Part shown: positions 2,199 to 42,338 of the stretch, one piece after another
How positions within the stretch are numbered: position 1 is the first letter of the stretch
How the letters are laid out: the number at the start of each line of letters is the position of its first letter
Virus record (IMG/VR): IMGVR_UViG_3300009360_000004
Origin: a virus
Direction: 5' to 3' (one strand)
DNA length: 42,338 nucleotides
The notes under the pieces: generated by a model
What the model saw: only the letters and a program-made list of their open reading frames with translations
The model's database searches: none
What the model was told of the DNA's origin: nothing
Program-made: the position numbers and the translations under genes

Positions 2199-3557
2199 AT
2201 GGCATACAGAAAATGGCAGAAGAAAAAGACGAGTCTTAGCATAGAAGAACTCACAGAACAGGAAGTTCAAACAAGGATGCTGAATCGCACAAACAAAGGT
2301 CGATGCGGTTATACTCCTCACTTTTATGGTTCTCACTCTGGCCTTGTTGGAGCGAGAATAGGAGAGCTGGTAGCTCACAATATCCCAGACGATGCATATG
2401 GTGTGGAGTGGGATCTCAGCGACAGTTCTTCGGAGCTTACCAGGATAGGTCAAGCTGCAGGGATGGATTCTGATGACTTTGATCTTATTGAACCGTTTGC
2501 AAGTATAGAAAGAATGACTCTTGATAGTGACGGAAATTGGATAGCATCTTTTGGCGATGCGGGATTTGTTGAAGATGGTACAGCCGGTGATGTGGTATCA
2601 AGGTTCAAGAAAGCCTATTATTTTACATATTACTCGCCGGAAGACAAAAAAGTCAGAATGTACTTTTCACCTGAACCGCTGCCCGGGTTTGTACCGTTTG
2701 ACTGTTTTGTAACCGGCGGGCAAACACTCGAAGAAATATATCTAGGCGCATATGAAGGTACTGTTCAAAAAATATCAGACAGCTCATGGGTAGAAGACGC
2801 ATCAGACGGTTCGAATCCAATACAGATAGCTACTCTCGACCTTCCAGACCATATGTTACGTTCCGTCTCCGGAAGAAAGCCAAAAACTAACCAGAATTTA
2901 CCGGAGTTTCGTACTATGGCAGAGAACAGAGGCACTGGTTGGGGATTGGTTGATCTTAAACAGGCCGGAATGGTGAATCTGCTATATCTAATTAAATATG
3001 CTGATTTCGACGCTCAAACGACAGTGGGGCAGGGCATAACCGGAAAAGCATCTGGAACAGGGAACGAATCTGAATTGACTGGTGCAACAGCACTACTAGG
3101 AGCTGTGGACACAGGAGGAACCAACCTTGAAGCAGTCTCGCTATTCGGACTTGAAAACTGGTGGGGTAATATGTGGGAGTTCACAGACGGTGGTGGTATA
3201 AAGTCTGATGGGTTTTATGTAGCTCCAGATAGACCTTACAACGATACCCTAAGTGGATACACACAAATACCGTGTTCACCTCCATTGACAAACGGTTATC
3301 TGAAAGACTTTTACTGGACTCAGGACTCGAAAGGTCTGTTCCTGCCAAAAAGCGTTCAAACCGATGTTCCGTCTGCAAGCAAGTATGTGTGTGACTATCT
3401 ATATACTCCGGCAGCTTATACTACGAACTGCTTTCTACGGGGCGGCCGTTGGATTGACGGCTCGCATGCGGGGCCTTTCTATTGGCATCTGTATTATTCG
3501 TTTGCTTATCGGCATCGGAACGTCGGGGCGCGCGCCTGTTTTGTTCCTACGGTTTAA
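2199..3557 (+). CDS. DGR target protein: putative receptor-binding / tail protein with C-terminal variable region
   Basis: 452 aa from ATG 2199 (RBS caggaggg; the track ORF 2061-3557 reads through the terminator so the true start is 2199). C-terminus ...NCFLRGGRWIDGSHAGPFYWHLYYSFAYRHRNVGARACFVPTV matches the usual C-type-lectin-fold variable-region pattern of DGR targets (RGG-W...G.F...R.VGaR.C). Confidence 0.75.
   Translation: MAYRKWQKKKTSLSIEELTEQEVQTRMLNRTNKGRCGYTPHFYGSHSGLVGARIGELVAHNIPDDAYGVEWDLSDSSSELTRIGQAAGMDSDDFDLIEPFASIERMTLDSDGNWIASFGDAGFVEDGTAGDVVSRFKKAYYFTYYSPEDKKVRMYFSPEPLPGFVPFDCFVTGGQTLEEIYLGAYEGTVQKISDSSWVEDASDGSNPIQIATLDLPDHMLRSVSGRKPKTNQNLPEFRTMAENRGTGWGLVDLKQAGMVNLLYLIKYADFDAQTTVGQGITGKASGTGNESELTGATALLGAVDTGGTNLEAVSLFGLENWWGNMWEFTDGGGIKSDGFYVAPDRPYNDTLSGYTQIPCSPPLTNGYLKDFYWTQDSKGLFLPKSVQTDVPSASKYVCDYLYTPAAYTTNCFLRGGRWIDGSHAGPFYWHLYYSFAYRHRNVGARACFVPTV
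3428..3499 (+). repeat. DGR variable repeat (VR) at the 3-prime end of the target gene
   Basis: Aligns base for base with 3625-3696 (offset 197); 58/72 identical; all 14 mismatches sit where the other copy has A. Confidence 0.8.
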
Positions 3558-3624
3558 TGGTTTTCCGCGGTTTGTAACAATTTTGGTACATTAACATACA
3601 AGTTTGGTCTGTGATTGAAGGAAC

Positions 3625-3696
3625 CTGCTTTCAACAGGGCAGCAATTGGAATAACAGCTCGAATGCAGGGCCTTTCTATTGGAATCTGAATAATTA
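3625..3696 (+). repeat. DGR template repeat (TR), intergenic
   Basis: Non-coding copy of the VR carrying 22 adenines, 14 of which differ in the VR; seven AAY (Asn) codons in the VR reading frame, the classical TR signature. Confidence 0.8.
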
Positions 3697-3742
3697 CTCG
3701 TCTTACCGCATAATGACGTAAAGTGTAAAAAAAACAAACGAA

Positions 3743-3766
3743 GCAGCCTACAATAGGCTGTTTTTG
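3743..3766 (+). terminator. Rho-independent terminator immediately downstream of the TR
   Basis: cagccta-caa-taggctg hairpin followed by ttttt. Confidence 0.55.
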
Positions 3767-3809
3767 TTTATTAACGCAAATATCTTGAACCTCTACCGGA
3801 GGTGAATCT

Positions 3810-4715
3810 ATGAATGATTCAATGTATTTGGACTATGAGCTTTACGGCAATTCAGAAGCAAGAGATGAAATATACTATGACAATGGTTGGAAGTTGCTGA
3901 GACGCTGGCACAAAGAAACCGTTACTTTTGCCAGCAACACCGCAACGCTCTCAAAAGTCGGAAAAGGCGATTGTGAAGTCACGGGTGGTGTGGCAGGAGT
4001 CGTATCTGGCACCACCTGCACAGCAACCATCGCGGATGGAGACCATGAAGTTCTGTATATGCTTCTAATTCCTGAAACCACAGAAATTGGTGCGGGTGTT
4101 GGTTTTGCTACTGATAAAGACGGCGTAATGCTAGACCTTCATCAAGCCAAACAGGTCGATGTTTTTGTTGGTGATGGATATACAACCGAATTTACACTCA
4201 CTGAAACCCCGAATGGAACTGCAAGCATTAAGGCATTTGTAAATGGTCTTGAAGATACAGATGTAACCGTGACTACTACTAAGGTTACATTTACGACTGC
4301 CCCACGCCGCAAAGCGTTGGTTGAGGTTGAATATAGTCTTGCGGTCAAGTATCAGGAACCTTTGACGTATTTGGAATATCTCGAAGCCTCAGGAACCGTC
4401 GAAACAGTACCCGCTCTGGTAGATCTCACAGTCACAGAGAACGAAGAAAAGACAGGCTACGTCAACGTTGACGGTGCACCGCTCAAAGTCGCGGGTAACA
4501 AGACGTACACGGTCACAGTCAACAAAGATTTGATCGAGTCTCAGGACAATGTGCTGGAAGAATACAGAGACAAGAAATTCAGGCTCAAAGTTTCGAACTC
4601 AAGAGACTCAAGCAACGAATACCTCGGAGTCTGTCATATCGACCCCGACGCTTCTCTGGATTACCTGAACGGAACTGAATCAATCACGATAAAGTGTGGT
4701 GATCTCTATGATTAG
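3810..4715 (+). CDS. Putative structural (tail) protein, beta-rich, possible Ig-like C-terminal region
   Basis: 301 aa ORF, RBS cggaggtga before ATG 3810; T/V-rich segments (TVTVTTTKVTFTT, KTYTVTVNKD); no RT motifs. Confidence 0.45.
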   Translation: MNDSMYLDYELYGNSEARDEIYYDNGWKLLRRWHKETVTFASNTATLSKVGKGDCEVTGGVAGVVSGTTCTATIADGDHEVLYMLLIPETTEIGAGVGFATDKDGVMLDLHQAKQVDVFVGDGYTTEFTLTETPNGTASIKAFVNGLEDTDVTVTTTKVTFTTAPRRKALVEVEYSLAVKYQEPLTYLEYLEASGTVETVPALVDLTVTENEEKTGYVNVDGAPLKVAGNKTYTVTVNKDLIESQDNVLEEYRDKKFRLKVSNSRDSSNEYLGVCHIDPDASLDYLNGTESITIKCGDLYD

Positions 4716-5167: not shown

Positions 5168-6253
5168 TTGAAGGTCGCAGTTTACGCGATCGCAAAGAAC
5201 GAGGCTAAACACGTGCCTCGATGGTATGACTCCATCGCTGAAGCGGATGGAGTTTTTGTTACAGACACCGGTTCGACCGACAACACGGTTGAACTTCTCA
5301 AAGAACGTGGGGTCAATGTCTTTCATGCAGAGATCGAACCGTGGCGATTCGATGTAGCCAGAAACATCTCTCTTGAGAATGTACCTGAAGACTTCGACGT
5401 ATGTTTGTGCATTGATTTAGACGAAGTAATGGAGAAGGGCTGGAGAGAGAAGGTCGAGAGAATCTTTCGGCTTTACCCGCAGGCCACTCTCGTTCGCTGG
5501 CCGTTCGTGTTCAGCTGGTTCGATGAGAAATGCACGAAACCAAAGACTTCAATGTACCAGTGGAAGATTCACGTCAGACACGGTTATCACTGGGAGTCTC
5601 CCATTCACGAAATCTTGGTATGGCATGGGAATGGCGAGACTCTGGAAGTTTATTGCGAAGACATTCACAGCTGGCATTATCAGGATCTCTCGAAACCTAG
5701 AGAGTATCAGAAACTCATCGACAAGGCCGTCTCCGAAGATCCCACAGATCAACGTCTTTCATGGCTTCGTGCGAGAGAACTGATGATGCATAACAGATTT
5801 GAAGAGGCCATCGAAGAGGCCAAGAGGCACCTCGACCTCACCAAAGAGATCAAGGAAGGCGAGAACACGCTCGTTATTGAACAGCTCCGGGCGCTCTCAA
5901 TGCGGTATATCTCGCAGGCTCTCATGCAGAGACACAAGCAAGACAAGACAGTCGATGCGGGAGAAGTCATTGAATGGATGCTGAAGTCTGTGGCCGAGTG
6001 TCCCTGGCTCCGTGAATCGTGGGTGGCTCTCGCTCAAGCGTGGGCGCTCTTCGATCAGTGGGAACAGGTCTATGCGTGTGCGACTTTCGCGCAGACCATC
6101 AAGGCGAGAACGAATTCGATAGAAAACGACGAGCTGGCCTGGGGCGAGTACCCGGAAAAGCTCGCAAGAATAGCGTGGAAGCAGATCAGAAAAGGAGGGA
6201 AAAGATTTGAGCAACAAGCCAAAGACGGACGTTCAAAAAGCAGAAAAGTTTAA
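5168..6253 (+). CDS. Glycosyltransferase family 2-like protein with C-terminal helical (TPR-like) region
   Basis: 361 aa, TTG start after agggagggg RBS. N-terminus KVAVYAIAKNEAKHVPRWYDSIAEADGVFVTDTGSTDNTVELL plus downstream DLDEV (DxD) matches the GT-A fold pattern of GT2 enzymes. Confidence 0.6.
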   Translation: MKVAVYAIAKNEAKHVPRWYDSIAEADGVFVTDTGSTDNTVELLKERGVNVFHAEIEPWRFDVARNISLENVPEDFDVCLCIDLDEVMEKGWREKVERIFRLYPQATLVRWPFVFSWFDEKCTKPKTSMYQWKIHVRHGYHWESPIHEILVWHGNGETLEVYCEDIHSWHYQDLSKPREYQKLIDKAVSEDPTDQRLSWLRARELMMHNRFEEAIEEAKRHLDLTKEIKEGENTLVIEQLRALSMRYISQALMQRHKQDKTVDAGEVIEWMLKSVAECPWLRESWVALAQAWALFDQWEQVYACATFAQTIKARTNSIENDELAWGEYPEKLARIAWKQIRKGGKRFEQQAKDGRSKSRKV

Positions 6254-7018: not shown

Positions 7019-7036
7019 GCGCTCCTTTCTTTTGGA

Positions 7037-10000
7037 GTGATGACTATGGCTTTCGAAGGACTGAATTTTGATGTTGGCCTGAACTCGAGGCCGTTCACAG
7101 ACGGAATCAAGACGATGCAGACTCAGGCTGCCTCGTTTGATAATACAATCAAGAATATTGGCAGAACGCTTATGGGAGTCTTCGGGACCGTCTCTGTCGT
7201 CGCCACACTGAAGAAGTCTATCGAGTTGTGGGGCGAGCAGGAGCAAGCGATGATGAAACTCTCCATCGCCGCGCAGAGGTTCACGAGAGACGCGCAGGGT
7301 ACATACGACAGGGTCACAAAACTGTCGGGCAATCTCCAGCACCTCACGGGCATAGGGAACGAGACGTACCAATCCGTCGCGGCTCTGGGCCTCTCGCTCG
7401 GAATCACGGAGGAGAAGATCGAGAACGCCACGACCGCGGCGGCCCTCCTCTCGCAGGTGACGGGGATGGATCTGAACAGCGCCATGAAGAACCTGGCAAA
7501 GACTCAGGCGGGATTGACGGGTGAACTTGGAGAAGCTCTCCCGTTTCTCAGAGAACTGACGCAAGAACAATTGAAGAGTGGTGCAGCAATCGACCTCGTG
7601 ATTCAGAAGTATGACGGCTTTGCCGAGCAGCTTTCAGGCACAACGCAGGTGGCGATGAAGAGATTCTGGTCCGCGCTTGGAGATGTCGGGGAGGTCCTGG
7701 GCAAGTCGTTCAACCCCTTGATTCAAAAAGCCGCTGACTGGATGGAAGGCTTCAGCTCGAAGATCGAGAAACCGACCGACATTCTCAAGACACTAAAAGA
7801 CACGATCAAGGCAGGATACGAAGAACTCGGGCCGTTCGGCAAGGCTGTTGTAGGTGTAGGTGCTGCGTTCCTGACGCTCAAGGTTGCTGGCACTGCATGG
7901 AGCTTGCTCTCACAGATAGTTGTGGCTGGTGGTCATCTGATTGTAGGCGTGTTCAAGACGATATTCTCGTGGCCCACACTCTTAATTGCTGGTTTGTACA
8001 CCCTTCGTGTTGCATGGGATCACGACTGGTTCGGGATTCAGGGGACGGTTGAACACGTTTGGAAAGTGATTGAGCCTATATTTATAAAACTCAAAGACGG
8101 TCTCGTCTCAGCCTCCACATGGGCTATATCTCTGGTTTGGGAAGGCGTGAAGTGGGCTGGAGAAAAGATAGCCGTCACATACGAAACTATCAAAGACTGG
8201 GTGCTCGAAGAGCTTGCACTTGGGAAGTCCCCGCTTGAGATCGTCGTTGATGCCGCAAAGATTGCGGGCGGTGTTGTCTGGGATGGTCTTACATGGGTAG
8301 GAGAAAAAATCGCGCTAGGTACGCAAATAGTCTTTGACTGGGTAAAATCTCAATTTGGAGATGAAATAGAGGTTGTAATCAATGCAGCTAAAGTCTTCGG
8401 TGGTATGGTTTGGAAAGGGCTCAAATGGGCCGGAGAGAAAGCAATAGTTACTGCACAGATGATTTATGATTTTGCTCTTAAATATGTACCGCTTGGTATT
8501 GAGACTGTTATCAACGTTGCATCAGTGTTTGGTTCGGTGATTTGGTCCGGCTTAAAATGGATAGGTGAAAAAGCAGTTAATCTTGCGGTTCTTATCAAAG
8601 ACTTTGCAGAAAGTGAAATAGATACAGGCTTTGAACAAACAATACAGATTGCAAAAGTCTTCGGCTCTATCATATGGTCTGGTCTCAAGTGGGTTGGAGA
8701 AAAGATAGTTCTCGGTATCAAAGTGATAGAAGGTTGGGTGAGAGATCAACTTGATCTCCCAGAAACCGCAACGCTCCCTGAAATCTTCCTTGATATGGTC
8801 AGAGTAGTTGGCACGGCAGCGTGGGATGGCTTGAAATGGGTAGGCCAGAAGGTTGCTATTGGTGCCAAAGAAGTCTATGATTGGGCTTCCGAAGGGCTAG
8901 AAACAGGCTTTGAACTCACAATCGAAGTTGCTAAACTGTTTGGCGGGGTAGCCTGGCAAGGGTTGGTAAAACTCGGTGAATGGTCATATGATGTTGCTGT
9001 GTGGGCTAAGGACAATGTCCTCCCTGCTGTGATTGAGACTACGGTTGAAGTTGGAAAGGTAATCGGTGGCGTTAGCTGGCTAGGTCTCAAATGGGTAGGT
9101 TCACAGATTGCGATAGGTTTTGACACTCTCAGAAACTGGGTCTATTCGGAGCTTGGCCTTGACAAGTATGGAGCGACATCAAATATCCTGATCGAAGTTG
9201 CCAAAGTCTTCGGAGGTCTAGGCTGGCTCGGTTTGAAATGGACCGGAGAAACGATAATTCTCGGATACGAAGCGCTCAAGAAGTGGACTGAAGAGCAGCT
9301 AGGCACCACACCGGTTGACATCATTCTCAATGTTGCGAAAGTAACAGGCACGGCAATCTGGGAAGGTGTGAAGTGGATAGACGACAAACTCCCAAAGATT
9401 GATCTCGGTGCTGACGATGAACAGAAAGTAGATCAGGGCATCGTGGATGTAGTTGTGAGTGCGATAGCTAACATTGCATCGTGGCAGTGGAGGGGCTTTG
9501 TCTGGCTCACTGAGAAGGCTTCATTCGGGCTCGACTGGCTCGCAGATCAGATCCGACCGAAAATAAATGTTGAAGTAAACGGAGACGATAACTCGGGTTT
9601 TGATATTGGAGATATAGGAGTATTCGCAAAGGGAGTCGCGAAGGTATTCTCAATGAAGTGGGAAGCCGTCAAGTGGCTCTGGACGAAAGTCACACAGAGC
9701 ACTTTCATTGAGGACCTGAAAAACAGAATAAAGAAATCATCGGGCATAGATGATGAGGTCGAAGTCACCTGGAAAGACTTGTTAGTCCGGGGCTTCGGCT
9801 CTATTGGCTCTGCCGCGTGGGATGGTCTTACATGGTTTGCGGAAGGTCCGGTACATACATTTGCCGACTGGGTACGAAAGCAGATCGGTATGAGCGAAGC
9901 CGGAGAGATGAAAGTAAACCTCGGGGATGACATTAAAGTGATCCTCTCGGGTGCAGTCTCTGGTGCGACTTGGCTAGTTGATTGGGTCAAACAAGGGATA

Positions 10001-12346
10001 GGGGCCGCAACCGAATGGCTTCAAGATGTAGGAGCAGTCCTTCGTAGGGCTGTGGAAGGCGTAGAAATGAGCGCAGAGGATATAAAACTCTATGAAACCA
10101 CGGCTTCGTTTGGCGTAAAATTGGGTGAGTTCATAGGTGCTGGAATCAAAGCGGGCCTCAATCTTCTTGACATAATTCAGAGTGCGCTTGCTGGAGTAAT
10201 TGCAGAAATGACAGGCTCAAAAGAAGTTGGCCAAGTTGCTGGGACTGCAATTCCTTTGTTTTTCACTGCAAAGTGGCTCATGACTCCAATTGCTACACTT
10301 ACCCCATTTCTTGTTGCTGCAATGGGTTTCGCGGGATTGAAGCCTCTCACTTTCGGGACGTTCGGTGTGATGGTTGCGTTAAAAGTTGCGCAGGATCTTT
10401 CAACAGGCGAGGCCGAGTGGCAGGACATAGGGGCAAGGTTCGTTGCCGCCCTTGCCGTGGGTATGGGGATAGGAGCGTTTCTCGGCAGTCCGAGCGCGGG
10501 GGTGCTGACATTCGAGCTTCTCATGCTCGTCAAAGTTGAAAAGTTTGTTGACAGCATAGGAAATGTTGTGAAAGATCTTGTGGACGCTGTCCTGTTCCCT
10601 GAATTCGTCGATCTTCCTGTATCTGAGAAGATGGAGAAGACTATCGGCGCACTTGAAAAGCTCGATCAGACTCTTGACAGACCCGCAGACAATCTTGCAA
10701 CGTGGCTCATCACTGTGGATGAAGCACTCGGAAATTTTTACAATACATTCCCGACGAAAGTCGAACTCAATCAGATGGGCGAACTTGAACAGAGCTACTA
10801 TATGGCCGTGCTCGAATATGCTCATGCCCTTGAGGCGTCATCAAATGCGATACTCGATGCAGCAGATGATCTTGCAGCAACGGCTCAAATGATCGAGAAC
10901 ATGAGACAGATAGTTGTGCCGATACCTGGGAAAGCAGAAGGCGGTTACATCTCAGGCCCGGGCGGTCCTAAAGAGGATAGAATACCCGCCCTACTCTCGA
11001 ACGGTGAGTTCGTAGTCAATGCGAAGTCAACCGAAAAGTGGCTACCGTTCTTGAAAGCAATCAATGCTCAAGGCTTTGCAGACGGTGGAATAGCTCGGTT
11101 TGCCACAGGCACGGCAACGAAGATAGACGTTGGCAGTATTGGTGGTGGTCCGCTCACATGGTGGGATACAATTCTAAACACCCTTATGAGTGTGGTCGGA
11201 GACTATGCCGAGACCGCAAAGAAAGACTTCGGGATGATTAAGAACGTACTCGGAGACTTGCTCAGAACAATAGGTCTTGACATCGACGCGCCGCTAGACA
11301 ATCTGAACAAACTGCAAAGTGAGCTTGACGGTCTGACTCTTTCTACGAGCGATACAGGTGATACAGTAGAAGACTTCATGACCGCCATGTTCAGGGGATA
11401 TCGCAAAATCAATCAAATCTCTGAGGTTCTCAGTGAAGGCAAGATAGAGAACGTCAATAGACAGCTTGCGTTCCTTGATACTGCGATGAACGATCTTGAA
11501 AAACAGTTCATGGAAGGAACCATCCAGCTCGGAGAGTACACGGAAAGAATGACATATCTCAAGAATTTGACAGACAGTTTCTCTGACTCTCTCGGAGACC
11601 TCAAGAAGAAGATTGAACGCAGCTCGATAGTCGGTGACTCATCCGAGATATTCAAGGTTGACGAGAACACCGGCGAGCTGGTCTCTGTATTTGCAAAACT
11701 GAGGCCGGGCATGGAAGGACTCACAGATGTTGTGGGCAATTTAGCCACAGCGGGTGAAATGTTTGCCATGAGTCTGTTGAATCAGGTCGTGAACCTCGAA
11801 GCTATCAACATGCTCCTGAATCCGATCTCAACGATTCTCACAGGTGTGATGGAGATACTAGGTCCGATCATCAACCTCTTGAAACCTCTCGGCGACGCGC
11901 TGGTCAGCATAGGCAGAGTCTTCGCCCTGACGTTCAATCTCTTCGGTCAGGGCCTCCTGGTTCTCCAACCGTTCTTCAAGGCTCTAGGCTGGCTCGGTGC
12001 TACGATCTCGTATATCGCGGACCAGATAGTCCTGTTCGTCGATGGAATTTTCACCTGGTTAAGCACTCTGCCGTTCATAGGTGGTCTGTTCAGTCCTCTC
12101 CTAACAGAGGATCAGAGGCAGAGCATGAAGCGCACCATCCCGGAGAGGATGGAAGATATCGAGCTTCCACAGTCCACGACAGGGCAGGTCTTCCAGGCAG
12201 GGAGTTCCCAGCACATCACGAACAACTACCACTTCGAGTTCAGGGGAAACGACATTCTCACAGAAGACGACGAAAGCGCCCGACGGTTCGCAGATCTCAT
12301 CTACAAGAACCTTCGCGATCGCGGCGTTCAGTTGCAGGTAGGGTGA
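7037..12346 (+). CDS. Tail tape measure protein
   Basis: 1769 aa ORF (ATG at 7040 or 7046 more likely than GTG 7037); largest gene, after the chaperone pair; N-terminal coiled coil, hydrophobic central segments, at least ten tandem ~45 aa repeats carrying W-x-G-L-K-W-x-G-E-K. Confidence 0.85.
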   Translation: MMTMAFEGLNFDVGLNSRPFTDGIKTMQTQAASFDNTIKNIGRTLMGVFGTVSVVATLKKSIELWGEQEQAMMKLSIAAQRFTRDAQGTYDRVTKLSGNLQHLTGIGNETYQSVAALGLSLGITEEKIENATTAAALLSQVTGMDLNSAMKNLAKTQAGLTGELGEALPFLRELTQEQLKSGAAIDLVIQKYDGFAEQLSGTTQVAMKRFWSALGDVGEVLGKSFNPLIQKAADWMEGFSSKIEKPTDILKTLKDTIKAGYEELGPFGKAVVGVGAAFLTLKVAGTAWSLLSQIVVAGGHLIVGVFKTIFSWPTLLIAGLYTLRVAWDHDWFGIQGTVEHVWKVIEPIFIKLKDGLVSASTWAISLVWEGVKWAGEKIAVTYETIKDWVLEELALGKSPLEIVVDAAKIAGGVVWDGLTWVGEKIALGTQIVFDWVKSQFGDEIEVVINAAKVFGGMVWKGLKWAGEKAIVTAQMIYDFALKYVPLGIETVINVASVFGSVIWSGLKWIGEKAVNLAVLIKDFAESEIDTGFEQTIQIAKVFGSIIWSGLKWVGEKIVLGIKVIEGWVRDQLDLPETATLPEIFLDMVRVVGTAAWDGLKWVGQKVAIGAKEVYDWASEGLETGFELTIEVAKLFGGVAWQGLVKLGEWSYDVAVWAKDNVLPAVIETTVEVGKVIGGVSWLGLKWVGSQIAIGFDTLRNWVYSELGLDKYGATSNILIEVAKVFGGLGWLGLKWTGETIILGYEALKKWTEEQLGTTPVDIILNVAKVTGTAIWEGVKWIDDKLPKIDLGADDEQKVDQGIVDVVVSAIANIASWQWRGFVWLTEKASFGLDWLADQIRPKINVEVNGDDNSGFDIGDIGVFAKGVAKVFSMKWEAVKWLWTKVTQSTFIEDLKNRIKKSSGIDDEVEVTWKDLLVRGFGSIGSAAWDGLTWFAEGPVHTFADWVRKQIGMSEAGEMKVNLGDDIKVILSGAVSGATWLVDWVKQGIGAATEWLQDVGAVLRRAVEGVEMSAEDIKLYETTASFGVKLGEFIGAGIKAGLNLLDIIQSALAGVIAEMTGSKEVGQVAGTAIPLFFTAKWLMTPIATLTPFLVAAMGFAGLKPLTFGTFGVMVALKVAQDLSTGEAEWQDIGARFVAALAVGMGIGAFLGSPSAGVLTFELLMLVKVEKFVDSIGNVVKDLVDAVLFPEFVDLPVSEKMEKTIGALEKLDQTLDRPADNLATWLITVDEALGNFYNTFPTKVELNQMGELEQSYYMAVLEYAHALEASSNAILDAADDLAATAQMIENMRQIVVPIPGKAEGGYISGPGGPKEDRIPALLSNGEFVVNAKSTEKWLPFLKAINAQGFADGGIARFATGTATKIDVGSIGGGPLTWWDTILNTLMSVVGDYAETAKKDFGMIKNVLGDLLRTIGLDIDAPLDNLNKLQSELDGLTLSTSDTGDTVEDFMTAMFRGYRKINQISEVLSEGKIENVNRQLAFLDTAMNDLEKQFMEGTIQLGEYTERMTYLKNLTDSFSDSLGDLKKKIERSSIVGDSSEIFKVDENTGELVSVFAKLRPGMEGLTDVVGNLATAGEMFAMSLLNQVVNLEAINMLLNPISTILTGVMEILGPIINLLKPLGDALVSIGRVFALTFNLFGQGLLVLQPFFKALGWLGATISYIADQIVLFVDGIFTWLSTLPFIGGLFSPLLTEDQRQSMKRTIPERMEDIELPQSTTGQVFQAGSSQHITNNYHFEFRGNDILTEDDESARRFADLIYKNLRDRGVQLQVG

Positions 12347-12350
12347 TAGT

Positions 12351-12698
12351 ATGACAGTTGACATAGGATCTCTCAGTTTCACGGTGTACCCGAAGAAATA
12401 CAAGCACCCATACAGAACCAGAGTGATCGAGCCGGTGGAGGTCATAAACATTGCGCCCGACGGTTCGGCATATCACTATTGTGACGGCACGGTGAAGAGA
12501 TACAAAATACCTCTCTTCTTCACCGAGTCGGACAGAACCACGCTGGAATCATACAGGCAGACCGCGGCGACTTTGAAGATAGACTCGGAGTCTGCCGTGA
12601 ATGTGAAACTGATCGGGAACTACGAGTACAAAGAAAAGTGGATCAAAGGCGTGGCAATGTACGAAGAAACGCTTGAGTTCCTGGAGGTGGCCACATGA
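12351..12698 (+). CDS. Hypothetical tail protein (distal tail protein position)
   Basis: 115 aa ORF directly after the tape measure gene, overlapping the next gene by 4 nt. Confidence 0.4.
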   Translation: MTVDIGSLSFTVYPKKYKHPYRTRVIEPVEVINIAPDGSAYHYCDGTVKRYKIPLFFTESDRTTLESYRQTAATLKIDSESAVNVKLIGNYEYKEKWIKGVAMYEETLEFLEVAT

Positions 12699-15586
12699 GT
12701 TTTCAGGTCAACCTCAATAGTGTGGACATATCGGCCCGGATAGTCTCCGGGCCGGTTGTTCATAAGAACGACGTCCTTCACGGTCGGATCTCTCCGAACG
12801 AGTGCAGCTTCGATATAGACAACACGAATCTTGCCTATACCATCTCGAACCTCGACATTGAAGGCCAGCTCGTGGAAGTGTGGGTAGATTCAACGAAACA
12901 GTTTACAGGCTACGCAGAAAAGCCGACTCTCACGAGAAATGGTCGAACAGTCACAATCAAAGCGTTCGACAAGATGAAGCAGCTTCAGAAGCTCAAGTGC
13001 GACGACAAGATGTTCATCGGATCGACCGCGGACGACATTCTGACGTGGCTCGTGGAGACTTGCGGAGGCATAGGTTCGGGCAGTCATAGCCTCGACAGCA
13101 TACTCGTTGCGACCTCCGGCGGCACGACTCAGGCGGTCGTGGGGTACGCGTTGTATTCGGTCAAAGACAAACTCACGGATAGGCTTCAGGAGATCGTCGA
13201 TTCGTGCGGCGGGTCTATGTGGTTCGACGAGTCGGGGGTCCTCCAATTTCGGGCAGGATTCGCGGCCACCTGGTCAACGTCCACAGTCGGCACGATCACA
13301 GTCTCGAAACTGAAAGACATAGACTCTCTTCAATGGTTGCCGAGCGAGGGCGATCGAGTCATTGTCAAATCGAAGAACCGCAGTGTCAAGACCGAGAAAG
13401 AGCCCGTCTTCACCTGGTCCGGCGTGGTCACAAGTGACGGACTGCCGACCGGCAAGGACGAGAACGGCAACGCTATCACCGACGACCAGTGGCGCGCGAA
13501 GTTCGACTCTCCGGCCATTGAGATAGATGACTACGCAACCGTTGACGCGGCCAAAGAATTCGACTCCGGGCTGACACTCAATCAGACCGTGTACGACGCG
13601 AACTTCGACTCCGGCGTTCTGAAGTACCCGGACTTCATGTATCTCCAGATAGACAACAGCTCGGGCGTTGACAAGAACGTCACGAAGCTGGTTATCGAGG
13701 GGAAGCCGGTCGTGGAGAACTATCTGGAAGTGATTCACGACGCGGGTAGTTTCAACACGGAGAGGGAGGTCTCGAACGATCTGATCTCCTCGAAGGTCTG
13801 GGCTTCGTCTCTGGCGAAGTGGTTGTACGAAAACGGCAACGACAAGTTCGAAGCAGTCGTGCCGCTCGCGGACTTCTCACTTGGCTTGAGCTGGAGCGTC
13901 GGAGACAAGGTTAACATCGTCGATGCTTCGACGGGTCTTTCACACAGAGCGTGGGTCAGGGCGATAGACATAGACTACCGCAACAGGGATCTGACGGTCA
14001 CGCTCAGGAGCGACAGAGCCTCCGGGTTCGAGTACACGGCGCCTCCAGGTTCGATCACCGGTCCGGGAACGAATATACCCTACGAACCACAGTTCGGTGA
14101 CGGTTCGGCTCCGGCAACTCCTACGGGGCTCGCTCTCACGGCCTTCGCGGTCAAGAATAGAAGCTATGTCAAGGCCACGTGGGACGCGAACACCGAGGAG
14201 GACCTGATCGGGTACGAGGTGCAATGGAACTACGACAATGGTGCAACTTGGTACAACGCCGGGTTCGTGAACAACAACGAGCTGGTGATCGAGGTCACAA
14301 ATCAGTGGGTGTCGGGGACTTCATACACTGTTTACGTTCAGGTCAGGGCTGTGGATATCGAGAATCTTCGTTCCGACTGGTCGACTTCTGACAGCGAGAC
14401 TATTCTCTACGACACCACGGCACCGGCAATCCCCGGGAGCATCTCGGCGGTCGGTGGAGTCGGTTTGATTCACGTCGATTGGTCGCAGGTGTATGACTCG
14501 GACGTGGAGCAATACTATCTTTATCGAAAGGTTCAGACCTCGGACGGCGGCGCTTTCAGTGCAAATTGGACGTTCCTTGCCGCCGTGAAAGGCACTGACT
14601 TCGTAGACAAAGACGTCGAGTATCATATAACAGACTCGGACGACCCGAACTATCCGCAATGGCGAAAATATATCTACGCCGTCAGGGCGACCGATTATGC
14701 GAATAATGCTTCTGATCGCAGGGAAATGTCAACTGCAAACGCTGTCTATGCGACTCAAGCCACGGGCGATGACATAGCCGTAAACTCAATCACGGCAAAC
14801 CACATCAATGTGGCTCTGGATCTTTCGGTCGGTCGTCAGATAAAGGTCGGTTCTCAGATACAGATAGGAGCTGACGTTGGCCCTGTCGGCGATACGTTCG
14901 ACGGAATCTACGTAACAGACGGCACGAACTACGTCAGGCTCTCTGCCGATGAGGTCAAAATCAAAGGCGATTTAGTTATTGGCGCAGGAGACAACGTTAT
15001 AGAGTTCGAGGACTCGAACATCTCCCTGGGGGACACCACGACGGAAGTGGCAGGAAACCTGACGAGGTACTATCTTCAGTTCAAAGCCCTGACAGGGTGG
15101 GGGAGCGACCCTGACCGTCAGGTGTTGGCTGTCGGGTACGCCCTGAACACTACCGACGACGAGTACCATTCGTATCTGGAACTTCAGAATCGTTTCGACA
15201 ACTACTCGAATATGGCGAGATTTAACATCTATGCTAAGACCGGCTCGAATCTTTCCAGTGGTGCGCACGTCCAGCTAGGTTTCTACGCATACAACAATTC
15301 GGGGGCCAATCTTGCCGGAGGGATTCTCTCGTTCATCCGTGAGGCCGAGGCCTCTTCTAAAGGCTGGTTCTATACCGACTCGGCATTGGAGCAGGTTATC
15401 CCGTACTGGTATGGGACGAGCGGTTCGCCCACGGCTAAACTCCCGTCTTTCAGCACTTGGACGGACGCTGAAGATTGCCCGGCATCGAACATCTGGATAT
15501 GGAGAAATTCGGGGGATAGCAAATACTATCTCTATATTCGAGATGTGAATGGAGATGTTCTGAAATGTGAAATGACTTTGACATAG
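12695..15586 (+). CDS. Tail fibre / host-recognition protein with fibronectin type III-like repeats
   Basis: 963 aa; repeated beta-rich segments with the W...Y...V.A.D motif pattern of FN3 domains (e.g. KATWDANTEEDLIGYEVQWNYDNG...YTVYVQVRAVD); position after tape measure protein. Confidence 0.6.
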   Translation: MSFQVNLNSVDISARIVSGPVVHKNDVLHGRISPNECSFDIDNTNLAYTISNLDIEGQLVEVWVDSTKQFTGYAEKPTLTRNGRTVTIKAFDKMKQLQKLKCDDKMFIGSTADDILTWLVETCGGIGSGSHSLDSILVATSGGTTQAVVGYALYSVKDKLTDRLQEIVDSCGGSMWFDESGVLQFRAGFAATWSTSTVGTITVSKLKDIDSLQWLPSEGDRVIVKSKNRSVKTEKEPVFTWSGVVTSDGLPTGKDENGNAITDDQWRAKFDSPAIEIDDYATVDAAKEFDSGLTLNQTVYDANFDSGVLKYPDFMYLQIDNSSGVDKNVTKLVIEGKPVVENYLEVIHDAGSFNTEREVSNDLISSKVWASSLAKWLYENGNDKFEAVVPLADFSLGLSWSVGDKVNIVDASTGLSHRAWVRAIDIDYRNRDLTVTLRSDRASGFEYTAPPGSITGPGTNIPYEPQFGDGSAPATPTGLALTAFAVKNRSYVKATWDANTEEDLIGYEVQWNYDNGATWYNAGFVNNNELVIEVTNQWVSGTSYTVYVQVRAVDIENLRSDWSTSDSETILYDTTAPAIPGSISAVGGVGLIHVDWSQVYDSDVEQYYLYRKVQTSDGGAFSANWTFLAAVKGTDFVDKDVEYHITDSDDPNYPQWRKYIYAVRATDYANNASDRREMSTANAVYATQATGDDIAVNSITANHINVALDLSVGRQIKVGSQIQIGADVGPVGDTFDGIYVTDGTNYVRLSADEVKIKGDLVIGAGDNVIEFEDSNISLGDTTTEVAGNLTRYYLQFKALTGWGSDPDRQVLAVGYALNTTDDEYHSYLELQNRFDNYSNMARFNIYAKTGSNLSSGAHVQLGFYAYNNSGANLAGGILSFIREAEASSKGWFYTDSALEQVIPYWYGTSGSPTAKLPSFSTWTDAEDCPASNIWIWRNSGDSKYYLYIRDVNGDVLKCEMTLT

Positions 15587-34580: not shown

Positions 34581-34652
34581 AGGCACGTAGCGCAATGGCA
34601 GCGCATCCGTCTCATAAACGGAAGGGTAGCGGTTCGAATCCGTTCGTGCCAC
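34581..34652 (+). tRNA. tRNA with CAU anticodon (tRNA-Met or lysidine-modified tRNA-Ile2 type)
   Basis: Hand-folded cloverleaf: 6 bp acceptor stem plus A1-A72 mismatch, D arm gcgc/aatggca/gcgc, anticodon arm tccgt-ctCATaa-acgga, variable loop agggt, T arm agcgg-ttcgaat-ccgtt. Confidence 0.6.
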
Positions 34653-34821: not shown

Positions 34822-34998
34822 TTGAGTCAGGCCATACAATGCGACGAATGTGGAAAGACTGCACATATGACCCATCACTGGCACAAGCTCGACGGGCTGG
34901 ACTTCTGCTCGTGGAAGTGTGTGCGAAGGTTTGCGAATCGAAGGATCAAACAGGATCGGGAGTATCAGAGAGAGAAAGAAGGGATTGAATGCAGATAG
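34822..34998 (+). CDS. Small zinc-binding protein
   Basis: 58 aa from TTG 34822, 5 nt after tggaggt RBS; CDECGK ... CSWKC. Confidence 0.4.
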   Translation: MSQAIQCDECGKTAHMTHHWHKLDGLDFCSWKCVRRFANRRIKQDREYQREKEGIECR

Positions 34999-36155
34999 AA
35001 AAGAAGAAAGTCTCCGACTTAAAGTGTGCTCCATACAACCCGCGAAAGATTGACGACAAAGAGCTTGCAAAACTAAAACGAAGCATCACCGAGTTTGGTT
35101 ATGTAGAACCTATTGTCTGGAATAAACGCTCGGGCTTCGTTGTGGGAGGTAATCAGAGACTCAAGGCATTACGTGAGCTTGAAATAGAGGAAGCCGATGT
35201 CGTGGTTGTTGACCTTGACGACGCAAAGGAGAAAGCTCTCAATGTCGCCTTGAATAAAATCTCTGGCGAGTGGGACTTCATCAAGCTAAAGGACGTATTG
35301 ACTGACATTGACACAGGAGACTTTGACATAGAGCTGACTGGGTTTGATTTGGATGAGATAGGAGAATTGATAGCTTTCGACAAAGAACCTGAAGAAGATG
35401 GTTTCGACGTAGACGCTGCATTAGAAAACACAGAAGAACCCGTGACAAAACGCGGTGACATTTACCTGCTTGGAAAACATCGCCTGATGTGCGGGGACTC
35501 AACTATCAAAGAAGATGTCGAGAAGCTGATGGATGGTAAGAAAGCGGATATGGTGTTCACTGACCCGCCTTATGGGGTGAATTACGATGGCGGCACTAAA
35601 CTACGAAACAAATTAGCGGGCGATGATACCACCGATTTGTACGAGCCTTGCTGCAAAATGGCACGCGATTTCTCGACGAACGAAGCGGCTTTGTATCTTT
35701 GGCACGCAGGGGTGAAAGGGATAGCAGCCGCAGCCGCAGCCGCAGATTGGGTCATTCGTTGTGAGATAGTTTGGAATAAAAACCATGCACAATTCGGCGC
35801 GTTGTCGGCACAGTACAAACAAAAGCACGAGCCTTGTTATTATTGCTACAAAAAAGGAAAGACGGTAAATTGGTGTGGGCCGAAAAACGAAGTAACGGTG
35901 TGGGACGTTGACAGAGCGTTGGTGAATGAATACCATCCCACACAGAAGCCGGTGGAGTTGGCAAAACGCGCTATTCAAAACCACAAAGCGGATTTGGTAC
36001 TCGACTTATTCGGCGGCTCAGGCTCAACACTCATAGCTTGTGAACAGCTCAACCGCATCTGCTACATGATAGAAATTGACGAGCGATACTGCGATGTAAT
36101 CGTAAAGCGTTGGGAAGAATTCACAGGCAAGAAAGCTCAATTGATGAGGAAGTGA
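34989..36155 (+). CDS. ParB-like nuclease domain fused to DNA N6-adenine/N4-cytosine methyltransferase
   Basis: 388 aa; C-terminal motif IV FTDPPYG precedes motif I LDLFGGSGST; N-terminal ~120 aa is ParB/Srx-like. Confidence 0.7.
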   Translation: MQIEKKKVSDLKCAPYNPRKIDDKELAKLKRSITEFGYVEPIVWNKRSGFVVGGNQRLKALRELEIEEADVVVVDLDDAKEKALNVALNKISGEWDFIKLKDVLTDIDTGDFDIELTGFDLDEIGELIAFDKEPEEDGFDVDAALENTEEPVTKRGDIYLLGKHRLMCGDSTIKEDVEKLMDGKKADMVFTDPPYGVNYDGGTKLRNKLAGDDTTDLYEPCCKMARDFSTNEAALYLWHAGVKGIAAAAAAADWVIRCEIVWNKNHAQFGALSAQYKQKHEPCYYCYKKGKTVNWCGPKNEVTVWDVDRALVNEYHPTQKPVELAKRAIQNHKADLVLDLFGGSGSTLIACEQLNRICYMIEIDERYCDVIVKRWEEFTGKKAQLMRK

Positions 36156-42073: not shown

Positions 42074-42338
42074 ATGGCACTCCTGACATTGACGCAATAC
42101 AAAGCACTCAGGGGAATCACAAGCTCGACTCAAGATACTCAACTCACGGCGATAATCTCGGCGGTCGAAGCAGAGATCAAGGGTGTCTGTGGGTACGACG
42201 ATGACGAAGATCTCCCCTCGGCTCTCCAACTCACGGCCTGCGACATGGTGGATCACCAGATGCTGGAGATATCCGGTATCAAGTCTCAGAGTCTCGAAGG
42301 CGCTTCGGTCACATACGAAAGTAGCTATTCTCAGAAGA
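42074..42338 (+). CDS. Head-tail connector/adaptor protein (gp6-like), 5-prime part; continues at 1-180
   Basis: ATG 42074 after ggaggtg RBS; reading frame continuous through the terminal repeat to the stop at 178-180 (about 102 aa in total). Confidence 0.55.
   Translation, partial: MALLTLTQYKALRGITSSTQDTQLTAIISAVEAEIKGVCGYDDDEDLPSALQLTACDMVDHQMLEISGIKSQSLEGASVTYESSYSQK

Follow-up and report, generated by a model that had tools for sequence, protein, structure and literature searches.

The end of a tail protein gene and the intergenic DNA behind it share a pair of repeats that differ only at adenines, and this locus raises the question of whether the phage carries a working diversity-generating retroelement (DGR). 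We addressed this question in the window, which is the whole 42,338-nucleotide stretch of viral DNA that was analyzed, and in its sibling phages, which were recovered through a scan with a 24-mer from the core of the template repeat (TR) and through protein look-ups. Two siblings served as the main references: L029 (IMGVR_UViG_3300009680_000308) and L041 (ERZ773285 NODE_5618, 16.8 kb). We conclude that the element is very probably a DGR relic, in which an HNH cassette, itself now decayed, displaced the half that made cDNA, leaving the variable repeat (VR) frozen.

The repeat pair and its target gene

The features on the target side of the locus are as follows.

2199..3557, + strand: DGR target gene, encoding a 452-aa tail protein with a C-terminal C-type lectin (CLec) domain that contains the VR (open reading frame with ribosome-binding site; PHROG 5302)
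3428..3538, + strand: VR, with adenine-only differences from its own TR, 20 differences at A and one at a polymorphic site from the L041 TR, and between-lineage variation mainly in TR-adenine columns
3525..3538, + strand: GC-rich VR 3′ end GGGGCGCGCGCCTG, near-invariant in VRs, with fixed differences from its TR counterpart at A positions

Positions 3428-3499 and 3625-3696 aligned without gaps at an offset of 197, and 14 of the 72 positions differed, all of them where the downstream copy has A. The downstream copy is composed of 22 A, 20 T, 16 G and 14 C; eight of its adenines were unchanged, and no difference fell on a C, G or T. An earlier note on this DNA had claimed both the adenine-only mismatches and the unlikeliness of their chance placement, and realignment bore out the two claims, with a hypergeometric probability of 1.1e-9 that all 14 mismatches fall on A. 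Translated in the frame of gene 2199-3557, the TR reads CFQQGSNWNNSSNAGPFYWNLNN, and the note was also correct in that seven AAY codons stand opposite R, I, D, H, H, Y and Y of the protein. The 14th mismatch (C at 3499 against A at 3696) lies on a deletion junction, at a position where the full-length TRs of relatives have C. Therefore, we also evaluated the clean 71-nt stretch, 3428-3498 against 3625-3695, in which 13 of 13 mismatches fell on A (P = 3.5e-9).

The VR had been placed at 3428-3499. This segment is true VR, but comparison with the full-length TR of L041 moved the real end to 3538 and extended the repeat to 111 nt. In the same comparison, the window VR showed 20 mismatches at A; one more fell on a site that is polymorphic among TRs and carries A in the window's own copy. 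Among related phages, 27 of the 34 TR-adenine columns of the VR were variable compared with 12 of the 83 non-adenine columns (Fisher P = 3e-11). The repeat pair is a true DGR product, a TR with its VR. The core motif is matched a third time near 7024; this match adjoins terminator-like sequence and was dismissed as due to chance.

The 3′ end of the VR was nearly constant in the seven VRs compared, with the form GG[G/A]GCGCGCGCCTG (L020 has GGAG), and the TRs of relatives carry GGAGCACGCACCAG at the same place. This recognition-element feature is present in the window, where the VR has GGGGCGCGCGCCTG against GGAGCACGCACCAG in full-length TRs. By analogy with the initiation-of-mutagenic-homing elements IMH and IMH* of BPP-1 (PMC3240598), we infer that 3525-3538 is a putative IMH equivalent. 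Downstream of the VR, no significant DNA hairpin was found, and the fold was no better than that of shuffled sequences (z = 0.9).

The target gene product matched the PHROG 5302 family "tail protein" with an E value of 5e-73. Its AlphaFold model, built with 31 homologues, reached a pLDDT of 84.8 and a pTM of 0.84. The nearest solved structures were TaqVP (5vf4; E = 3e-13, probability 1.0), followed by TvpA (2y3c) and Mtd (1yu4), and FGE/EgtB-type folds were matched as well. The match of the model to TaqVP, TvpA and Mtd upheld the C-type lectin fold that had been proposed for the C-terminus; the prediction supports a CLec fold of the kind found in DGR variable proteins, which would place the VR inside a ligand-binding scaffold. 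Distant homologues of the target carry the annotation of crAss-like tail protein. In L027 (IMGVR_UViG_3300042270_000186, 10001-12722), a distant homologue with 27% identity is directly followed by a DGR reverse transcriptase (RT); therefore, the target family is tied to DGRs well beyond this phage group.

The closed genome and its missing reverse transcriptase

The window carries an exact terminal direct repeat of 136 bp (1-136 = 42203-42338), and contig L001, from a different sample, spans the junction of its ends. Therefore, the window is a closed circular phage genome of 42,202 bp (42.2 kb). Contigs of 42,329-42,430 bp were found in other samples. Pfam and PHROG scans of the window returned a siphophage layout. 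The packaging and head genes encode the large terminase, an SPP1-type portal, MuF, scaffold, capsid and head-tail connectors. The tail genes comprise the target, a 301-aa structural gene, a GT2 glycosyltransferase gene, a 1769-aa ORF and a 963-aa ORF, the last of which matches a PHROG virion structural protein family. The 1769-aa ORF has no family match and stands at the tape-measure position, so it is the presumed tape-measure gene. A glucosaminidase represents lysis, and helicases, a primase and a methylase represent replication and other functions.

Several minor features of the genome were also recorded. The gene for the family-2 glycosyltransferase (5168-6253) lies within the tail block, between the 301-aa gene and the 1769-aa ORF, and is present in all siblings. 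A tRNA-Met gene (anticodon CAT, 34581-34652) adjoins a gene with an RyR domain and a ParB-N/DNA methylase fusion (34989-36155); beyond one tRNA, an Rfam search of the whole window returned nothing. Contigs L006 and L023 are otherwise 99.99% identical to the window, and their differences from it are clustered in two patches, 7793-8230 inside the 1769-aa ORF and 2790-2957 in the N-terminal half of the target. The patchy differences suggest either that the lineage recombined with siblings or that contig ends were assembled as chimeras. In the host search, the nearest relative of the portal protein, found in Lysinibacillus, was only 40% identical, and the one host hint was that a protein of a sibling bears the MAG label "Synergistaceae bacterium". 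The TR 24-mer gave zero matches among 185,579 reference genomes.

Searches for an RT pointed to a single place in the window. The RVT_1 family was absent from the approximately 45 window ORFs in the Pfam scan, and six-frame tblastn with BPP-1 Brt (from NC_005357) found nothing better than E = 5.6. The RT of L029, from a phage related to the window at 83-86% nucleotide identity, gave one match, in which residues 323-334 align to 3775-3810 with 83% identity; nothing else in the window appeared at E < 0.9. The two features at this place are as follows.

3775..3810, + strand: RT remnant, the last 12 codons, which run into the 301-aa gene's ribosome-binding site and start
3810..4715, + strand: 301-aa virion structural gene (weak PHROG match), which directly follows the RT in L041, L029 and L044-L049

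It could be supposed that an RT is present and was missed, either outside the window or of an unrecognizable type, as several window ORFs have no family assignment. However, the genome is circularly closed, the former RT site is known from relatives and now holds a 78-bp scar and the last 12 RT codons, and the RT of a close relative finds no other match at E < 0.9. We therefore regard a missed RT as extremely improbable.

Avd was not found in the window, either by tblastn with BPP-1 Avd or by Pfam. The intact siblings also lack it, so Avd is not defining for this subtype; it is present in most DGRs, not in all (PMC5758913).

The reading of the locus as a working DGR was thus not sustained: the genome is closed and has no RT, the TR is truncated, and the spacer behind it is lost. 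Because the RT and a complete TR, two defining features, are missing, we classify the element as the remnant of a DGR and not as a DGR proper. For annotation, the lesson is that mismatches confined to adenines, however perfect the pattern between TR and VR, are no proof that a DGR works.

Sibling phages and the lesion at the former RT site

The intact arrangement is preserved in L029 and L041, whose flanking genes are 79-88% identical to those of the window. In both, the order is the target with its VR, the same 67-nt spacer as in the window, a TR of approximately 111 nt, a second spacer of approximately 125 nt, a 334-aa RT and the 301-aa gene. The RT matches RVT_1 (7e-17) and Brt (1e-40) and contains the motifs IGNYTSQ and YMDD. 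The VR and TR of L029 differ at 19 positions, at A only, and the L041 pair likewise differs at A only; six contigs of another RT-bearing lineage showed 22-23 VR/TR mismatches, all at A. For the spacer between TR and RT, the consensus RNA structure of the RT-bearing relatives gave a covariation term of -0.44, which is too weak to claim and comes from only four sequences. A search of viral contigs for close relatives of the RT returned L029 itself and nothing more.

In comparison with these siblings, the window contains the following features between the VR and the 301-aa gene.

3558..3624, + strand: VR-TR spacer, 67 nt, unusually conserved between lineages
3625..3695, + strand: TR remnant, the 5′ 71 nt of a TR of approximately 111 nt (aligned to the complete TRs of L029, L041 and L035)
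3696..3773, + strand: HNH-cassette scar, 78 bp, in place of approximately 1.1 kb that comprised the TR 3′ third, the spacer RNA and the RT gene

Homology to the full TR ends at 3695 after ...CTGAATAATT, and the window lacks the 3′ third of the TR and the downstream spacer of approximately 125 nt that L041, L035 and L046 have kept. The scar is 100% identical across all window-type contigs and includes a terminator-like hairpin at 3740-3764, detected by a terminator scan. Its origin can be traced through siblings (L019/L011/L012 and L040) that carry a gene for a 229-aa HNH endonuclease at the RT site (Pfam HNH, 2.7e-7). The left 20 nt of the scar are common to the HNH cassettes of L019 and L040, and its right part is the terminator hairpin that lies downstream of HNH in L040. 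Moreover, the left junction, ...AATAAT-CAY-TCGTCTTACCGCAT..., is the same in the window, in L019, L011 and L012, and in L040. The HNH ORF itself is absent from the window, where the cassette flanks alone remain.

Between L019 and L040, the HNH cassette is 95.9% identical at the nucleotide level, compared with 77.6% for the target genes and 76.9% for the spacer. The identity of the cassette, set against that of the target genes, argues that the cassette moved between lineages, which would also account for the different VRs found behind one shared junction. A further reading is that the cassette is a selfish homing element, for which the invariant and highly conserved TR serves as a recognition or recombination anchor, that converts co-infecting RT-bearing phages into RT-less ones, and that the homing-competent VRs of RT-less genomes are possibly rewritten now and then by RT-bearing siblings in trans. 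We consider this reading rather unlikely. If true, the loss of the DGR in this phage group would be the result of a conflict between two mobile elements and not of relaxed selection.

Deletions at this site are not limited to the window. In the RT-less siblings, they share a right boundary, the 3′ end of the RT, which doubles as the ribosome-binding site of the next gene, and their left ends vary. The left breakpoint lies at approximately TR nt 84 in L036 and at TR nt 23 in L022, and the whole TR is gone in L020, L021 and L042. The sister lineages hold at least three other deletions; counting the window, the group shows one cassette replacement and no fewer than four distinct breakpoints. The L036 and the window/HNH junctions, at least, are independent; the shorter remnants could derive from longer ones. 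No new genomes emerged when viral contigs were scanned for the L036 junction and for more junctions of the window type.

The conservation of the remnant invites a different explanation, that it has been retained because it serves some further function, such as that of a recombination cassette or of a piece of the tail gene's 3′ UTR and terminator region. Positions 3545-3696, which cover the VR-TR spacer and the TR remnant, are 96-99% identical to L019, L022 and L029, compared with 76-88% for the flanking genes, and the terminator-like hairpin follows at 3740-3764. Recent recombination or constraint acting on cis elements may account for this high identity. However, L022, L020, L021 and L042 have dropped the TR partly or wholly and kept the flanking genes, the TR remnant of L040 shows non-A drift, and the region has neither a promoter-like site (no sigma-70-like site in a scan of 3400-3900) nor a significant DNA fold. 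Another role for the remnant is therefore very unlikely in our view, and we retain the reading of a DGR relic.

Two observations on L040 stand apart. Its spacer is divergent, unlike those of L019, L022 and L029. Its TR remnant (L040 1836-2010) has three non-A mismatches to its own VR within 72 nt, which may represent drift after inactivation or a TR that was acquired together with the cassette.

The state of the variable repeat and its relation to known elements

Codons 434-442 (3500-3525) lie beyond the local TR and are variable among siblings. In the window, they differ from the L041 full-length TR at adenines only; therefore, the VR was last written from a full-length TR, before the truncation. 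The exact 452-aa protein occurs in 23 contigs from at least 10 samples, with one VR, and the 90% protein cluster of the target contains no VR-only variant. Contigs of the window lineage (99.1-99.99% identical) vary in scattered recombinant patches and never in the VR, the spacer or the TR. The population variability at the VR to which the earlier note had attached weight was thus absent among the assembled contigs, where 23 contigs hold one VR; these are consensus contigs of a nearly clonal lineage, in which low-level diversification would escape detection. In the L020 lineage, which has neither RT nor TR, proteins P0041 and P0048 differ by six changes outside the VR and none within it. In an RT-bearing lineage, P0050 and P0058 show no differences at 410 non-VR residues and three in the VR. 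Near-identical pairs involving P0040, P0044 and P0047 are 7-13 VR residues apart at the protein level.

The window VR shows zero non-A mismatches to the TR remnant, which indicates that the loss is recent or that the element is not fully dead. The intact GC-rich element at the 3′ end of the VR also counts against the death of the element. These points bear on the possibility that the DGR is active in trans, in which case mutagenized cDNA would reach the VR from a host DGR or from an RT-bearing sibling phage, co-infecting or resident, that supplies TR and RT, and the RT-less phage would be a free-rider. For BPP-1, complementation in trans has been demonstrated in the laboratory. There are RT-bearing siblings whose TRs are nearly identical, and RT-bearing relatives co-occur with the window type in sample ERZ778039 (L009 and L053), so supply in trans is physically possible. 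Additionally, the VR 3′ element is conserved, and the window and L019, which share one junction, have VRs that differ even at codons outside the truncated TR. However, lateral spread of the HNH cassette is a simpler account of different VRs behind a shared junction. No VR variant of the window lineage was seen in the 23 contigs or in the protein cluster, the non-A positions of the VR agree with the window's own TR type and not with the type of the co-occurring L053, and the TR 24-mer was without a match in the 185,579 reference genomes. Activity in trans therefore appears improbable to us, although less so than a further role for the remnant or a missed RT.

Samples that hold both RT-bearing and RT-less types apparently come from bioreactor or digester communities, as judged by database labels only. 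The RT-bearing contigs L044-L053 are all 4.5 kb or shorter, and several of them begin a short way ahead of the RT gene, within the TR or immediately behind it; the RT-less genomes, by contrast, assemble as complete circles. The short RT-bearing assemblies are consistent with VR heterogeneity breaking the assembly.

We propose the following putative history for the relic. The ancestor would have carried a cassette of target, TR and RT, without an accessory gene, that diversified the C-type lectin tip of a siphophage tail protein. An RNA covering the TR of approximately 111 nt and the spacer of approximately 125 nt would have been reverse-transcribed by the adjacent 334-aa RT, with template adenines misread, and the cDNA would then have replaced the VR at 3428-3538. 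Later, an HNH cassette would have taken the place of the TR 3′ third, the spacer and nearly all of the RT gene. Last, the HNH ORF would have been lost, leaving the 78-bp scar and the terminator; this order of events is our reconstruction. The window's own TR would now yield no cDNA, and the VR would be a frozen snapshot of the last homing event. Loss of function of the window DGR is likewise what we infer from the lesion.

A close parallel is the DGR of Bordetella phage BPP-1 (mtd VR1, avd, TR and brt). Both systems involve a phage tail receptor-binding protein with a C-terminal CLec VR, adenine-specific TR-to-VR differences and a GC-rich VR 3′ element unlike its TR counterpart, and the RT of the intact relatives aligns to Brt (E = 1e-40). 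In contrast to BPP-1, the window and its intact relatives have no avd, and the window has lost the RT and the TR 3′ end. TaqVP of Thermus aquaticus (PDB 5vf4) has the CLec/FGE-type fold that best matches the modeled target among solved structures; however, it is a cellular protein and not a phage tail protein, and it shares only 17-18% sequence identity with the target. Because they lack avd, the intact sibling DGRs (L041, L029 and L047) belong to architecture A1, which consists of target, TR and RT without an accessory gene (Wu et al. 2018, PMC5758913); architecture A, with A1 included, makes up 29% of catalogued DGRs (PMC5758913). Of this layout, just the target and a 71-nt piece of the TR are left in the window. 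By mechanism and descent, the window element is a CLec-type phage DGR of architecture A1 that is now decayed.

Fragmentary DGR cassettes have been reported in crAss-like phages, where components were lost and TR/VR traces were left (PMC12386605), as in the window. The difference is that close siblings here allow the junction, the HNH cassette and the series of independent deletions to be reconstructed base by base. The 229-aa HNH ORF of L019 and L040 resembles free-standing phage HNH homing endonuclease genes in being far more conserved than its flanks, as expected for a laterally spreading cassette, whereas in the window the ORF is gone and only the flanks are left. Loss of DGR activity has been treated mostly in theory (bioRxiv 10.64898/2026.02.18.706561), and our incomplete coverage of the literature returned no account of an RT displaced by an HNH cassette. 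Surveys of DGRs start from the RT, so RT-less relics are invisible to them. The value of the present locus lies in a reconstructable decay series and in co-occurring RT-bearing and RT-less siblings that can be compared base by base; this sibling set provides a natural system for studying the circumstances in which a hypermutation device is retained or given up.

An unrelated phage, L038/L031 (Ga0326511_10000290, a 42,420-bp contig), was also noticed to carry a TR/VR pair of approximately 105 nt with clean differences at adenines only; its TR lies near 7496 of the L038 reverse complement. No RT was detected by tblastn within this locus. Under the standard bacterial code, just three ORFs of at least 150 aa were found in 13 kb, and L038/L031 may be a stop-codon-recoded phage.
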